Assembly (NCBI GenBank): GCA_964402815.1
Contig: CAYODP010000001.1
Coordinates: 415-64,414 of the forward strand
Length of the DNA: 64,000 nucleotides
Source of the DNA: an uncultured Candidatus Saccharibacteria bacterium
Lineage (GTDB): Bacteria; Patescibacteriota; Saccharimonadia; Saccharimonadales; Saccharimonadaceae
Direction of reading: 5' to 3'
Shown here: positions 41,716-50,783 of the stretch, piece after piece
Layout: the number at the start of each line of letters is the position of its first letter
How positions within the stretch are numbered: position 1 is the stretch's first letter
Notes under the pieces: model-generated
What the model was told of the DNA's origin: nothing
The model's database searches: none
The model's input: the letters and a program-made list of their open reading frames with translations, nothing else
Made by a program: the position numbers and the translations under genes

Positions 41716-41936
41716 TTCTTATACTTCCGCATAAAACTATCGACCGTACCATATTCTGTTTCAATATAGCGCTTATAAGTATCATAATTGAGCATAATAT
41801 CTCGGTATTCTCGGCTGGTAATGCCACAAGCCTTAATCGCTTTATAGGCTTCCATAATCATATTATATCTACCACTTCTACGAACTTCCTCGTACTTGTA
41901 AAAGTTAGGCTTCCAGTTCTCATTTATCAAAGTCAT
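41703..41936 (-). CDS. Small hypothetical protein (weak DUF5049-like V..SG.YNM motif)
   Basis: 77 aa; abuts its neighbours; motif YEEVRRSGRYNMI. Confidence 0.6.
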   Translation of the reverse strand: MTLINENWKPNFYKYEEVRRSGRYNMIMEAYKAIKACGITSREYRDIMLNYDTYKRYIETEYGTVDSFMRKYKKCVC

Positions 41937-42215
41937 CTAAGGTTCCACCTCACAATTACTCGACGTTCTCGTCCATATATGCTCGACAATCTCACCGTCA
42001 GCCCAAAGTTTATATTCCAATTGACTCAAGTAGTTCAGTCTATCTTCAAGACTTGGGAACATTGTATCGTCCACCATCACAAAGTGATGCTCTCCATCTG
42101 TACCTAGATATTTCATAACCGTAATTGACTTTGGAGATAAATGTTTCATAACAACAATTATTGTTAGAAATACGTAAAAAGTAAATGACAAAAATATAGC
42201 CTCTAAGTTCAACAC
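41937..42215 (-). CDS. Small hypothetical protein, paralog of 43618..43857
   Basis: SPKSITVMKYLGTDGEHHF matches SENSVTIMKYKSPDGVYDF; the true start may be the downstream Met (MKHLSP). Confidence 0.6.
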   Translation of the reverse strand: MLNLEAIFLSFTFYVFLTIIVVMKHLSPKSITVMKYLGTDGEHHFVMVDDTMFPSLEDRLNYLSQLEYKLWADGEIVEHIWTRTSSNCEVEP

Positions 42216-42285
42216 TTAAAGGCTGTTATTGCTCAGACTTAAAACTTTTCCACTAACTGCCGTTTAGCCGAGGTGGCGTTGTGAA

Positions 42286-42312
42286 CTAGCACTCACTATT
42301 GACGAGTGCTAT
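42286..42312. promoter_or_regulatory. CIRCE-like inverted repeat (HrcA operator consensus)
   Basis: CTAGCACTC-ACTATTGAC-GAGTGCTAT versus the consensus TTAGCACTC-N9-GAGTGCTAA: exact 9-nt spacer and 8/9 per arm. Confidence 0.7.
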
Positions 42313-42327
42313 AATGGGGGCTATAAT
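42299..42327 (+). promoter_or_regulatory. Sigma70 promoter overlapped by the CIRCE-like repeat
   Basis: TTGACG-17 nt-TATAAT; the ATG at 42334 lies at the expected transcription start. Confidence 0.75.
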
Positions 42328-42333
42328 GTGGAT

Positions 42334-42909
42334 ATGAATACCGATAGTTTAATTACTTTTTTCCAAAAAAAGATTGCCGAGATTGATAAGCTGAATGGCT
42401 TAGGTTTAGATAATGCGGAGTTTCAAAAATGGCATGCGGCTATATTGGCTACTTGCAAACGCATGGGCGGAGACTATGCGTCGAGATTTGACGAAATTAG
42501 CTATATGCCAGCAGTGTGGACTATTGATGGCGACAACAGTGAACTCTTTGCTTATGCATACGACAAAGGGCTATTAAGTGCAAAAGCGCTGCTTGAAGCT
42601 TTTGTAGAAGAACTTGAAACTTGGGGATACGATGGCGACTCCAAGGCAGAAAAATCAAAAGTCGCAAAGAGTCAACAACCAGCCGTTAACGTAAATGTCT
42701 CGCAAAATCAGACTCAATCTCAGTCCATATCCACCTCAATCAATCTTTCAGCCTACAATGAAGAAACGCAAGAAAAACTCAAGGAGCTTGCCGAGGAGAT
42801 TCGTAAACCAAATAATCGCAGCAAGGTCACTTCAATTATTAAATGGCTAGCAGACAAAAGTGCTGACGCGCTCATTGCCCTTCTGCCGACAATGATTAAA
42901 TTTGAGTAA
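42334..42909 (+). CDS. Hypothetical helical protein, first gene of a two-gene operon
   Basis: ORF track starts at GTG 42328, but ATG 42334 fits the promoter; Q/S/N-rich linker; its stop overlaps the next start. Confidence 0.75.
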   Translation: MNTDSLITFFQKKIAEIDKLNGLGLDNAEFQKWHAAILATCKRMGGDYASRFDEISYMPAVWTIDGDNSELFAYAYDKGLLSAKALLEAFVEELETWGYDGDSKAEKSKVAKSQQPAVNVNVSQNQTQSQSISTSINLSAYNEETQEKLKELAEEIRKPNNRSKVTSIIKWLADKSADALIALLPTMIKFE

Positions 42910-43582
42910 GTTACGCATGATAAGTGCTTCAATGAAACGCAGCCATGATAGTGACACAAATCAAACAAAAGAAAAACTACTAGATTTTGTATCTAAATCT
43001 ACAAAGAAAAGTGTTTGCCATGATGCTGACCAGCTCCTAGAGCTATATGACGCATATGATGCCGCCTATATAGCGGCTACTGAGTATTTTATCTACTATT
43101 GTATTATCGCCGCTCCAAGCGTAGCTGATTATTTCAATGCGGCAGACGGTGGTCGGACTTGGCAATTTATCGGTGATGCCATATTTGACGAGGGCGTAAA
43201 TGCTTTATGGCAGTTTTTTGATCGGAGCGGTTTAAATATAATTCAAAGATTCGATAGAGCTTTTGGTACAAAAATCGGTAATCTCATTCAAGATGAGAGA
43301 ATAAAGGAGCTTAAAGAATATCGTCATAAACGTGCCGCCCATCGTAACAAAAATATTCATGAGAAAACTAATATACGTTACGAAACACCAATTCACGTGT
43401 TAGACAAGTTAAGGGTGGTCAAAACGAAATTTGATAATGAGGCAGGTTTGGCTCAATCGATTTATATGCTTGATATCGAAAACTCATGCGTGATGAGGAT
43501 TGCTTGGATACTCAATGATCTAAAGATACCAGAGAATATGTCCGAAAAAATATTGAAAGAAATTCACGACTTATGTTCGTAA
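42902..43582 (+). CDS. HEPN-like protein (AbiU2-like)
   Basis: Helical 226 aa with ELKEYRHKRAAH (R-x5-H, at 43322-43342); upstream DEG..ALWQFFD pattern. Confidence 0.55.
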   Translation: MSKLRMISASMKRSHDSDTNQTKEKLLDFVSKSTKKSVCHDADQLLELYDAYDAAYIAATEYFIYYCIIAAPSVADYFNAADGGRTWQFIGDAIFDEGVNALWQFFDRSGLNIIQRFDRAFGTKIGNLIQDERIKELKEYRHKRAAHRNKNIHEKTNIRYETPIHVLDKLRVVKTKFDNEAGLAQSIYMLDIENSCVMRIAWILNDLKIPENMSEKILKEIHDLCS

Positions 43583-43617
43583 AGTAGATGTCTAAATATG
43601 CAATAGATAAGTGCTTA

Positions 43618-43857
43618 TCATAAATCAAATATCGGCAAAGTCTTAATCCATAAAACTTCGTAGCCCTCAGCCTCTATTCTCTGCTTCTCTTTAATCATAG
43701 CATCTAGCCGCTCCACCTCGTCCGCTACGTTCCACTTATCAAGACACTTGAAGTCATATACTCCATCTGGAGACTTATACTTCATAATAGTGACACTATT
43801 TTCGCTCGCTGGGTTCATGCTGTCTCCTCTCTTCCACTTTTCGTTTGTGTTCTTCAA
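43618..43857 (-). CDS. Small hypothetical protein, paralog of 41937..42215
   Basis: See paralog; probable start MNPASEN. Confidence 0.6.
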   Translation of the reverse strand: MKNTNEKWKRGDSMNPASENSVTIMKYKSPDGVYDFKCLDKWNVADEVERLDAMIKEKQRIEAEGYEVLWIKTLPIFDL

Positions 43858-44236
43858 ATCTTTTCTTGTCTAGTTGCCTAAACTGTTCCCAAACCACTCT
43901 TCGCTCATCGCCCTCCAATAACCTACTTCCGTCCATACTAACTTCAAAAACTGAGGAGCTATTGCTGTCGTGATCCATGCGACTAGACTGCTCGGCATAC
44001 AAAACGAGATGATTACCAACTTTCCCCAAAAAGTAATCAAACCCACCAAACATTCCCAGAATGGTAATATGCTGACCATTCTCCCATCCTAGCAAACTTT
44101 CGTCAATCTTTGGGAACTCAAAATCAGGGTTTTCATCTAAGTACTTGTCAAAGTCACAAAACTTACACCGTTCAATAATCAGCTTCCTAAAGTTTTGCTC
44201 TAGTTTATTCAAACTGTTTGTGTTATTTTCCGCCAT
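43796..44236 (-). CDS. Hypothetical protein
   Basis: 146 aa; GMFGGFDY...LYAEQSSR...FEVSMDGSRLL core followed by a charged helix. Confidence 0.7.
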   Translation of the reverse strand: MAENNTNSLNKLEQNFRKLIIERCKFCDFDKYLDENPDFEFPKIDESLLGWENGQHITILGMFGGFDYFLGKVGNHLVLYAEQSSRMDHDSNSSSVFEVSMDGSRLLEGDERRVVWEQFRQLDKKRFEEHKRKVEERRQHEPSERK

Positions 44237-48957: not shown

Positions 48958-50721
48958 ATGTCAAGAAAGCAAGTGAAATACAAAAAGCAGGCTACGAGTA
49001 GCGACGAATTGCGCTTTGTCGCTTATATGCGTAAGTCAACTGAAGACAAGAATCACCAAATGAACTCAATCGTCGACCAACAAACATGGATTACGCGAGA
49101 GGCAAGAAAACTAGGGCTAAAGATAGTGGCAGTTTTTCAAGAAGAGAAATCTGCCTCTAAGCCTAAGAATCGCCCAGAATTCGATAAAATGATGAAAATG
49201 CTAGAGGCAGGCAGGGCAAATGCTATTATTTGTTACCACGTAGACCGCTTATCGCGAAACCCAATCGACAATGGACGATTACAATGGGATGTAGCTAATG
49301 GCACTATTCAAAAAATTCATGCTTCGGACGGAGATTATACGAATGGTGATAATAGCAACTTCATGTTTGCGTTGCAAAACTGCCTAGCGACAGACTATTC
49401 TCAAAAGCTAAAGAGCCGCGTGCACTATACTATGATGGAGAACAATAGGCGGGGTCGTTGTAATGGACGTGCTGCGCAGGGATATCTTAATAGGCACGAC
49501 CCAAATAACCTGAAAAGAGCCATCGTCATAAAGGATACGAGTATTGTGGGCAAAAACGGAGAGAGTCGTTACGACCTAATTCGTAAAGCCCTCAAGATGT
49601 TTGGCACTGGAAATTATAGTCCTGTAGAAATTAAACAAATGCTTGATGATTGGGGTTATACTCAGCGACGTACTCACAAAGGTTTAACTCTTGGTGGACT
49701 ACATTATATTCTAGAAAATCCATTTTACGCAGGCTACACCGAAGACCCAGAAGACCCCGATGTCTGGCATAAGGCGGAGTGGGAGCCCATGATTAGTGAG
49801 CAGGAATACTGGCGTAACCAGAAGATTAAGCAAAGCTATGGCCGAAAAACAGGAAAACATTGCCCCCGCCCTAGAATTTCGGCTCGTGCCTATAAGTTTC
49901 AACTCAAAGGTGTAATCACGTGCTCTAGTTGCGGTTGTGGCATTGGTGCTGGTTATCACCCAAAAATTATGGCGGATGGTTCTACGAAAATCTATGTCCA
50001 CTATGCCTGCAATAATAATGGCCATAATTCTCTCAGAAAATGTCAACTACATGGCGGTATTAGCGAGCCAGCACTATTTGCTCAAGTAGACGCATTACTT
50101 AACAAATATCGAATCAGCCGAACGCTCTATGAATGGGCATTAGAAATTCTTGGCAAATTAAAGGATGAAGAAATTTACGAAAGGCACAGTATTGAAATGA
50201 GCCAGAATGCCAGCGTTGAACGTTTAAAAGCAAAGCGCGATAGGCTACTTGATATGTAGCTAGAACATGAAGAAGACGGAATTGAAATGACCGCTGAAGA
50301 ATACAATACGCGCCGACAAAAACTGGATTCCGCCATCACCGAATTAGAACAATCCAGACGCGACGTTGTCGATAGGAACCAAAATTGGTATGAAATTATT
50401 GGTAAGACTTTAGAAACGTTAAATGATCCACGCGAAAAATTTACCGATGGCAGTTGTTCCGGAGAAAGACGTAGTATTCTACAATCAATCGGTCCACGTG
50501 CCTACCTCGTGGAATGCTTCGACCGTTACAGTAAGAAAGGTAAGGTTTTAACCAAACGAGTTCTAGAGGTGGAGCCTTATCCGTGGCTCGAAAAATTGCG
50601 AAAATCAGCACAAAAAATGGAACACGATTTCGGGAAGGTTTTTACCGCAAACCAACAGGGGCAAAATGACCAAAAATCGGCTCCTTATAAACTTTGGTGT
50701 GCCCGACTAGACTTGAACTAG
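48958..50721 (+). pseudogene. Large serine recombinase (integrase) interrupted by an in-frame TAG at 50257-50259
   Basis: Catalytic YMRKST (Ser), SASK...RPEF..M, DRLSRN, recombinase domain (NPFYAG), zinc ribbon CSSCG...YACN...C. The same frame continues after TAG (LEHEEDGIEMTAEEY...) to 50721. Confidence 0.85.
50693..50708. repeat. Right attachment site within the tRNA-Leu 3' end
   Basis: TTTGGTGTGCCCGACT, matching 39028-39043. Confidence 0.75.
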
Positions 50722-50783
50722 CACAGCTTAAAATCGCCACTACCACCTCAAGGTAGCGTGTCTACCAATTCCACCACGGGCAC
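50695..50783 (-). tRNA. tRNA-Leu (anticodon GAG)
   Basis: Acceptor GTGCCCG/CGGGCAC-A-CCA; D loop GGAATTGGTAGAC; anticodon stem CTACC-TTGAGGT-GGTAG; long variable arm; T arm GTTCAAGTC. Confidence 0.95.

Follow-up and report, generated by a model that had tools for sequence, protein, structure and literature searches.

The heat-shock repressor HrcA acts by binding the controlling inverted repeat of chaperone expression (CIRCE), and needs GroEL to stay active. As Mogk et al. reportedly showed in 1997, unfolded protein titrates GroEL and the HrcA regulon is derepressed as a result; many phages depend on or load GroEL/ES. A repressor that sits at the promoter of a defence operon and is released by an infection-linked cue is known in the WYL-type BrxR/CapW. 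On the effector side, HEPN-MNT and other type II toxin-antitoxin or abortive infection (Abi) modules consist of a small upstream gene and a close HEPN effector on mobile DNA, and AbiU2 (PF18734; Lactococcus AbiU), a group of all-helical proteins of ~220 aa, is listed among the HEPN families as one with an R-x(4-6)-H motif that occurs in restriction-modification (RM) operons (Anantharaman et al. 2013, PMC3710099). Here we describe, within a 64-kb stretch of the genome of an uncultured Candidatus Saccharibacteria (TM7) that we refer to as the window, a two-gene cassette in which a CIRCE-like operator lies over the promoter of a gene for a PDC-S35-like protein (gene 1) and a gene for an AbiU2-like HEPN protein (gene 2). 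We lean towards reading it as a mobile HEPN defence cassette of gut Saccharibacteria that is kept silent by HrcA through CIRCE and released by folding stress. Its features are as follows.

42282-43619, plus strand: whole cassette (operator, promoter, gene 1, gene 2 and 3' hairpin), delimited by empty-site contigs
42286-42312, unstranded: CIRCE-like operator CTAGCACTC-ACTATTGAC-GAGTGCTAT, from consensus match and conservation in homologous promoters
42299-42327, plus strand: sigma-70-type promoter TTGACG-17-TATAAT, 11/12 to consensus
42334-42909, plus strand: gene 1, 191 aa, with an N-terminal helical domain (aa 1-100), a disordered Q/S/N-rich linker (aa 102-133) and conserved C-terminal helices (aa 143-183)
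42917-43582, plus strand: gene 2, 221 aa, AbiU2-like HEPN protein and predicted RNase, from Pfam, hhalign and motif
43322-43342, plus strand: HEPN motif codons R136-H-K-R-A-A-H142, from an alignment of 13 sequences
43606-43619, unstranded: short palindrome GATAAG-TG-CTTATC, at the cassette's 3' edge, read from the sequence

With the HrcA-CIRCE regulon (groESL, hrcA-grpE-dnaK) the cassette shares the 9-N9-9 inverted repeat and its position over a sigma-70-type promoter, an arrangement also found at the sduA gene of the Shedu system; unlike in that regulon, the operator travels with a mobile cassette, and what lies downstream is the PDC-S35-like/HEPN pair or Shedu in place of chaperone or protease genes. 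Gene 2 is like AbiU2 in length, motif, the all-helical character of its model and the RM and defence surroundings of its relatives, but the window protein falls below the family threshold, belongs to a tiny clade, has a CIRCE operator and is partnered with neither a Sel1-repeat protein nor a nucleotidyltransferase. The layout of a small upstream gene and a close HEPN gene on mobile DNA recalls HEPN-MNT and related modules; in contrast to these, gene 1 has no nucleotidyltransferase or DNA-binding domain, and the operator resembles the site of a host regulator rather than that of an antitoxin. Unlike with BrxR/CapW, repression here would fall to a core housekeeping regulator whose gene lies elsewhere, and it would be chaperone load that is sensed instead of DNA damage or nucleic-acid ligands. 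In full-text searches, no paper came up that connects phage defence, abortive infection, toxin-antitoxin systems, HEPN or Shedu with HrcA or CIRCE, and none on HrcA in Saccharibacteria or on PDC-S35; no precedent emerged for an arrangement of which the original prediction knew no described example. The parts are of known kinds (a HEPN Abi-like effector, and CIRCE); what is new, to our knowledge, is to find them combined on a mobile cassette, and again at Shedu.

The sequence TAGCACTC-ACTATTGAC-GAGTGCTA at 42287-42311 is a perfect inverted repeat (arms TAGCACTC-N9-GAGTGCTA, zero arm mismatches), and the operator matches the 18-nt CIRCE consensus TTAGCACTC-N9-GAGTGCTAA at 16 of its 18 positions. 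It is the only site in the 64 kb at three or fewer mismatches to the pattern, and shuffled sequences gave a mean of 0.24 sites at up to three mismatches. Read 5' to 3', the region runs gtgaaC, TAGCACTC ACTATTGAC GAGTGCTA, Taatgggggc, TATAAT, gtggat, ATG. The -35 hexamer TTGACG (42299-42304) falls within the spacer and right arm of CIRCE and, together with the -10 hexamer TATAAT (42322-42327), forms the best promoter-like site in the region. This is the layout that the original prediction had described, a near-consensus CIRCE overlapping the -35 of a TTGACG-17-TATAAT promoter. It had also placed the pair on the strand opposite to the surrounding small genes, and the small genes on either side do lie on the other strand; the translational coupling that it named amounts to close spacing without overlap, the gene 2 ATG at 42917 following the gene 1 stop after a 7-nt gap.

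The ATG of gene 1 at 42334 stands 6 nt past the -10, a spacing that recurs in the homologous promoters of loci L001, L009/L016, L010, L019 and L255 and makes a leaderless or near-leaderless gene 1 mRNA plausible. In L001 the -10 lies 21 nt past TTGACG, and in L007 the distance from -10 to ATG can be read as either 6 or 9 nt. RNA contigs over the cassette are of low depth, undirected and from one gut metatranscriptome; one of them, of 151 nt, starts at 42335, too weak a signal for a transcription start site call.

The conservation of the operator was assessed across homologous pairs retrieved by protein similarity, a set that is therefore unbiased for the DNA motif. A check of this kind had been proposed along with the original prediction, and a CIRCE-like repeat was found upstream of every homologous pair so retrieved, in eight promoter variants that match the 18-nt consensus at 14-17 positions and keep the N9 spacing throughout. 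The operators read TTAGCACTT-GCTATTGAC-GAGTGCTAA in L001-L008, TTAGCACTT-ACTATTGAC-GAGTGCCAA in L009 and L016-L018, CTGGCACTT-ATCATTGAC-GAGTGCTAG in L010, TTAGCACTT-ATTATTGAC-GAGTGCTAA in L019/L020 and TTAGCACCC-GCTATTGAC-GAGTGCTAT in L255-L257. Seven of the eight variants show no change in either the repeat arms or the -35: GCACT and ATTGACGAGTGC are unchanged in seven distinct homologous promoters while both flanks vary, and synonymous divergence between cassette lineages is saturated (dS 1.1-2.5). Promoter function alone does not explain why the arms are conserved, since the left one is not part of the promoter hexamers and the right one falls in the promoter spacer. By our own arithmetic, the 18-nt consensus with three or fewer mismatches is expected by chance at ~3e-7 per position, or well below 0.1 sites in ~250 kb.

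To relate the repeat to HrcA, metagenomes were scanned blindly for TTAGCACTT-N9-GAGTGCYAA, which gave at least 119 loci, and the adjoining genes were classed by tblastn and clustering. Among the matches listed, 98 of 119 loci (82%) adjoin groES/EL, hrcA/dnaK, clpB, htpG or small heat-shock genes, with GroES (34), HrcA (31), ClpB (9), HtpG (9) and small heat-shock proteins (8) as classes beside the motif, to which GroEL and DnaK hits are added; this makes the motif a highly specific marker for HrcA regulons. None of these 119 listed loci contains gene 1, gene 2 or SduA, and none of the listed contigs is close to the cassette lineage. The phylum does encode the repressor: in the cultivated Saccharibacterium Southlakia epibionticum, SEML1_0720 carries PF01628 and PF03444, has an ECOD match to 1stz, that is, HrcA, and lies directly upstream of grpE and dnaK (PMC10633639). 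The TM7x genome has groES/EL and grpE-dnaK-dnaJ. In four metagenome loci (L027, L081, L085 and L134; taxon unverified), CIRCE directly precedes a gene for an unusually short HrcA (243-255 aa), similar in length to that of Southlakia epibionticum, followed by grpE and dnaK, the architecture reported for that species.

A comparison of the contigs of four gut metagenome or metatranscriptome runs with window positions 41900-43900 shows that the operator is part of the mobile unit. In these four runs, several contigs represent an empty-site form in which 42281/42282 is fused to ~43620 and 1333-1340 bp are absent; in run X25, cassette depth is ~31, against roughly 50-500 for the flanks. The missing segment reaches from 4-5 nt 5' of the repeat to beyond the short palindrome downstream of gene 2, so the operator, the promoter and both genes are gained or lost together, as one 1.34-kb unit that some strains carry, and others lack, at one and the same site. 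This agrees with the earlier view of the pair as mobile cargo. The cassette is positioned between two paralogous small genes of a conserved backbone, and the backbone junction AAATCAAATATCGG lies directly 3' of it in L001, L007, L009 and L016. The 3' palindrome is possibly a weak terminator; other cassette variants have different short hairpins at the equivalent position. An 11-nt direct repeat, GATAAGTGCTT, occurs at 42919-42929 (gene 2 start) and at 43606-43616 (3' edge of the cassette), and may be due to chance, the expectation being about 0.2.

Among the homologous loci, several place the pair in defence islands with RM, AbiH and Shedu genes, in line with the defence setting that had been predicted for it. 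The gene order is a C5 methylase and an HNH gene, Shedu SduA and then the pair in L009; AbiH, an MmeI-type RM system, SduA and then the pair in L016/L017; and an AAA_13 protein, SduA and then the pair in L018. No recognised defence genes were found near the pair in L001, L007, L019 and L255. In the four loci with sduA, a CIRCE-like repeat also stands at the sduA promoter (L009:7570-7596; L016/L017:5565-5591; L018:5565-5591), followed after 8 nt by (TGn)TATAAT and then by the ATG, 8-9 nt past the -10. The sduA sites are TTGGCACTT-N9-GAGTGCTGA, CTAGCACTT-N9-GAGTGCCAA and TTAGCACTT-N9-GAGTGCCAA. SduA proteins of L009 and L016 are 98.6% identical, and their operators keep the arms and differ in spacer and flanks. 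Because the neighbouring Shedu gene has the same type of operator, HrcA seems to gate more than one defence system in the cassette lineage.

Other occurrences of the motif were also noted. An orphan CIRCE-like site, TAAGCACTT-N9-GAGTGCTAG (L009:4906-4932), lies between the convergent ends of NUDIX and HNH genes, with a TATACT box after it and no obvious gene downstream; beyond this site and those of the pair and sduA, there are no further sites at four or fewer mismatches in the window or in any lineage locus. In run X29, a mouse-gut metatranscriptome, a 293-nt contig of depth 17 opens with the module of window positions 42287-42326 (5 mismatches in 40 nt) and continues into unrelated sequence, so that the CIRCE and promoter module may precede other cargo too. 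At least 115 viral contigs in IMG/VR (L140-L254) carry a perfect CIRCE, with a chaperone gene in the fetched DNA in only 39, and at L230:5375-5548 four CIRCE sites in tandem, spaced by 49 nt, precede an open reading frame (ORF) of 234 aa. Mobile elements elsewhere may exploit HrcA too, or some of the IMG/VR contigs may be host DNA.

Gene 2 appears to be a divergent HEPN protein of the AbiU2 type, as judged from its sequence relationships. Its motif RHKRAAH is an R136-x5-H142 site, and R136, A141 and H142 do not vary among 13 sequences, which include relatives at only 22-30% identity. One relative, P0034, scores 39.4 bits against Pfam HEPN_AbiU2, above the cutoff of 26.8, three further relatives are weak matches, and a precomputed PF18734 domain is present on P0034 and P0037. 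The close gene 2 family aligns with P0034 by hhalign at 92% probability, and membership of gene 2 in AbiU2 would follow by transitive homology via P0034; the HEPN-like nature ascribed to gene 2 in the original prediction is supported by the Pfam match of P0034, the hhalign probability and the invariant motif. From this we infer that gene 2 encodes an RNase. The family is small: 10 homologs were found, a profile search of 1.84 billion representatives at 50% identity returned only 11 family proteins, and the carriers among genome records are two metagenome-assembled genomes (MAGs), both of uncultured Candidatus Saccharibacteria. Ratios of nonsynonymous to synonymous substitution (dN/dS) of 0.04-0.16 for gene 2 and 0.11-0.38 for gene 1 indicate purifying selection on both genes. 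Of the distant relatives of gene 2, one lies within a type I RM operon and another beside an RloB and AAA_15/21 gene pair. None of the distant relatives has a CIRCE and their partners differ, so the arrangement with gene 1 and CIRCE is peculiar to the clade in Saccharibacteria. At L011:2150-2437 and L013:470-757, what precedes distant relatives is a conserved protein of 95 aa, unrelated to gene 1, whose motifs resemble those of staphylococcal nuclease (VDGDTF...GYNTPE, by our own reading).

For gene 1, the only significant match is to PDC-S35 of PADLOC, a single-gene candidate (E 1.5e-7), with aa 1-114 aligned to profile positions 1-115 of 264 and positions 116-264 unmatched. The match recurs in 13 of 13 members of the gene 1 family, in each case confined to the N-terminal part of the profile rather than spanning its full length. 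Fifteen homologs were found, and searches of plasmid and phage records found no relative of gene 1. Pfam and NCBIfam gave no significant match and PDB sequence-profile searches were empty. In the AlphaFold2 (AF2) model, the N-domain is confident (predicted local distance difference test score, pLDDT, mostly >90), the linker disordered and the C-terminal helical module, which is the most conserved part of the protein, moderately confident; searches of PDB and BFVD with this model gave no fold match, only generic helical bundles at E >0.1. A match to RIG-I Hel2i was dismissed as not significant (E about 0.5), and hhalign found no relationship between genes 1 and 2. The likeness to TIR-associated helical domains suggested earlier from the sequence found no support, PDC-S35 being the only significant match and the fold searches being empty. 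Gene 1 would rather be an accessory protein made up of modules, the N-domain acting in sensing or regulation and the C-module facing the effector, and does not resemble a classical antitoxin.

The window surrounding the cassette contains the core genes AlaRS, PheST, AspRS, UvrC, UvrD, BipA, MnmA and 5S rRNA, together with an island that has a large serine recombinase (48958-50259), an adjoining tRNA-Leu (50695-50783), a GIY-YIG protein and a DUF4379 zinc-finger protein. No att-like direct repeats delimiting this island were found when looked for. The sequencing runs that contain window sequence are mostly rodent and other gut metagenomes. The small genes flanking the cassette, at 41937-42152 and 43618-43857 on the minus strand, are paralogs (29% identity, E 1e-6), and genes of 66-99 aa resembling them adjoin the pair in most loci; their metagenome depth is much greater than that of the cassette. 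Directly 5' of the cassette, a block, GCCGTTTAGCCGAGGTGGCGTTGTG (42235-42281), is conserved in most loci and is retained in the empty-site form, and therefore belongs to the backbone. A terminator-like hairpin lies on the minus strand at 42198-42224.

In the mechanism that we favour, host HrcA, whose activity depends on free GroEL, would sit on the operator over the -35, occlude RNA polymerase and keep the cassette silent. Unfolded protein arising from heat, proteotoxic stress or the mass production of phage structural proteins would titrate GroEL and release the cassette, whose one promoter would yield a leaderless bicistronic mRNA for genes 1 and 2. The R-x5-H site of gene 2 is predicted to confer RNase activity that would arrest or kill the cell in the manner of an abortive-infection system or a toxin. 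The N-terminal, PDC-S35-like helical domain of gene 1 is probably sensor or regulatory, and its C-terminal helical module, which is always retained, may bind the effector or hold it in check. The steps from HrcA binding onwards, with induction by stress or by phage, are what we infer from these data, as are the RNase activity and the role of gene 1.

Several results weigh against this account. Neither Pfam searches of most of the large ORFs of the window nor tblastn against all lineage loci (~250 kb) found hrcA, groES, groEL, dnaK or grpE, so that the host hrcA that the original prediction would lead one to expect is attested in the phylum, by Southlakia epibionticum, but not in the lineage DNA covered. 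The left operator arm of L255 is substituted (GCACCC), the one arm change, in the eighth promoter variant. Gene 2 of the window scores only 16.4 bits (E 0.0065) against Pfam HEPN_AbiU2 (PF18734), below the cutoff; its AF2 model is all-helical and poor (pLDDT 65.5), and Foldseek found no match to it in PDB at E <= 0.001, only generic helical-bundle matches at E >0.1. Loci L001-L006 have gene 1 as separate N and C ORFs with an overlap at ATGGATAA (L001:5444-5993), and in L255-L257 (L255:8553-9128) it is frameshifted at a T6-CC-A8 tract near the 5' end, leaving a 169-aa ORF; in both cases the HEPN gene and the C-terminal module of gene 1 are intact, and phase variation could arise at the homopolymer tract. 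At L014:106-3279 and L015:2111-5284, the gene 1 homolog that diverges most (39% identity) is followed by genes for a C5 methylase and an MvaI/BcnI endonuclease; a HEPN gene is absent, as is a CIRCE-like repeat upstream, and the L015 copy adjoins a serine recombinase. The two genes may therefore depend on each other less tightly than a model of operon partners would have it, and it is doubtful that an 'antitoxin-like' gene 1 is an obligate partner of the HEPN gene.

The same operator evidence would serve equally well if HrcA does bind but infection is not what is sensed, the pair being a stress-responsive toxin module, or HrcA being borrowed as a tight off-switch that makes toxic cargo less costly to a genome that has very few regulators; any RNase action would then serve growth arrest under heat or proteotoxic stress, or nothing specific. 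This alternative gains from the lack of any direct phage link and from the finding of no relative of either gene in IMG/VR viral contigs, and yet the pair recurs within defence islands, where Shedu, a defence nuclease family by Pfam assignment, has the same type of operator; we regard it as unlikely. In the opposite direction, the preferred reading can be extended to make HrcA/GroEL a transcriptional guard of immunity in gut Saccharibacteria, in which several unrelated modules (at least the HEPN cassette and Shedu) each have their own CIRCE, chaperone load is the signal of infection and a plug-in operator spreads with mobile cassettes. We put this forward tentatively, as a possibility to which we give clearly less credence than to the reading it extends.

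Two further explanations dispense with HrcA or with defence. Were the repeat the operator of a repressor encoded by the cassette or the island (e.g. gene 1 autoregulation in the style of type II toxin-antitoxin systems), its likeness to CIRCE would be a matter of convergence. A palindrome over the -35 is indeed the classic layout of toxin-antitoxin autoregulation, gene 1 lies ~1.8 kb from sduA in all four loci in which sduA has a repeat, and the gene 1 homolog beside an RM system lacks one. Convergence would nevertheless have to account for a match at 14-17 of 18 consensus positions with exact N9 spacing and for the same motif standing at chaperone genes in 82% of the blind metagenome matches listed, and gene 1 has no helix-turn-helix (HTH), ribbon-helix-helix (RHH) or other DNA-binding signature in Pfam, its N-domain being modelled as an all-helical bundle without a fold match; this we consider distinctly improbable. 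We give slightly less weight still to the notion that the pair is an addiction or stabilisation module of an integrative island, with no role in defence. The two-gene toxin-like layout and the island with a large serine recombinase next to tRNA-Leu would suit such a module, but the cassette is itself gained or lost inside a conserved backbone, the pair is also found away from recombinases and beside RM, Shedu and AbiH genes, and two lineages with a disrupted gene 1 have nonetheless retained the HEPN gene.

How the release of toxic abortive-infection effectors is controlled is known for few systems, and a cassette under a heat-shock operator would link the sensing of proteostasis to immunity. 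The idea is directly testable, given a 27-nt operator, the well-established HrcA systems of Bacillus subtilis and the genetic tractability that Saccharibacteria have lately gained (PMC10633639). If true, it would show how a regulator found widely in bacteria can be tapped by mobile cargo. For Patescibacteria, a group with very few transcription factors and an almost unknown phage biology, it would moreover offer a first way into the regulation of defence.

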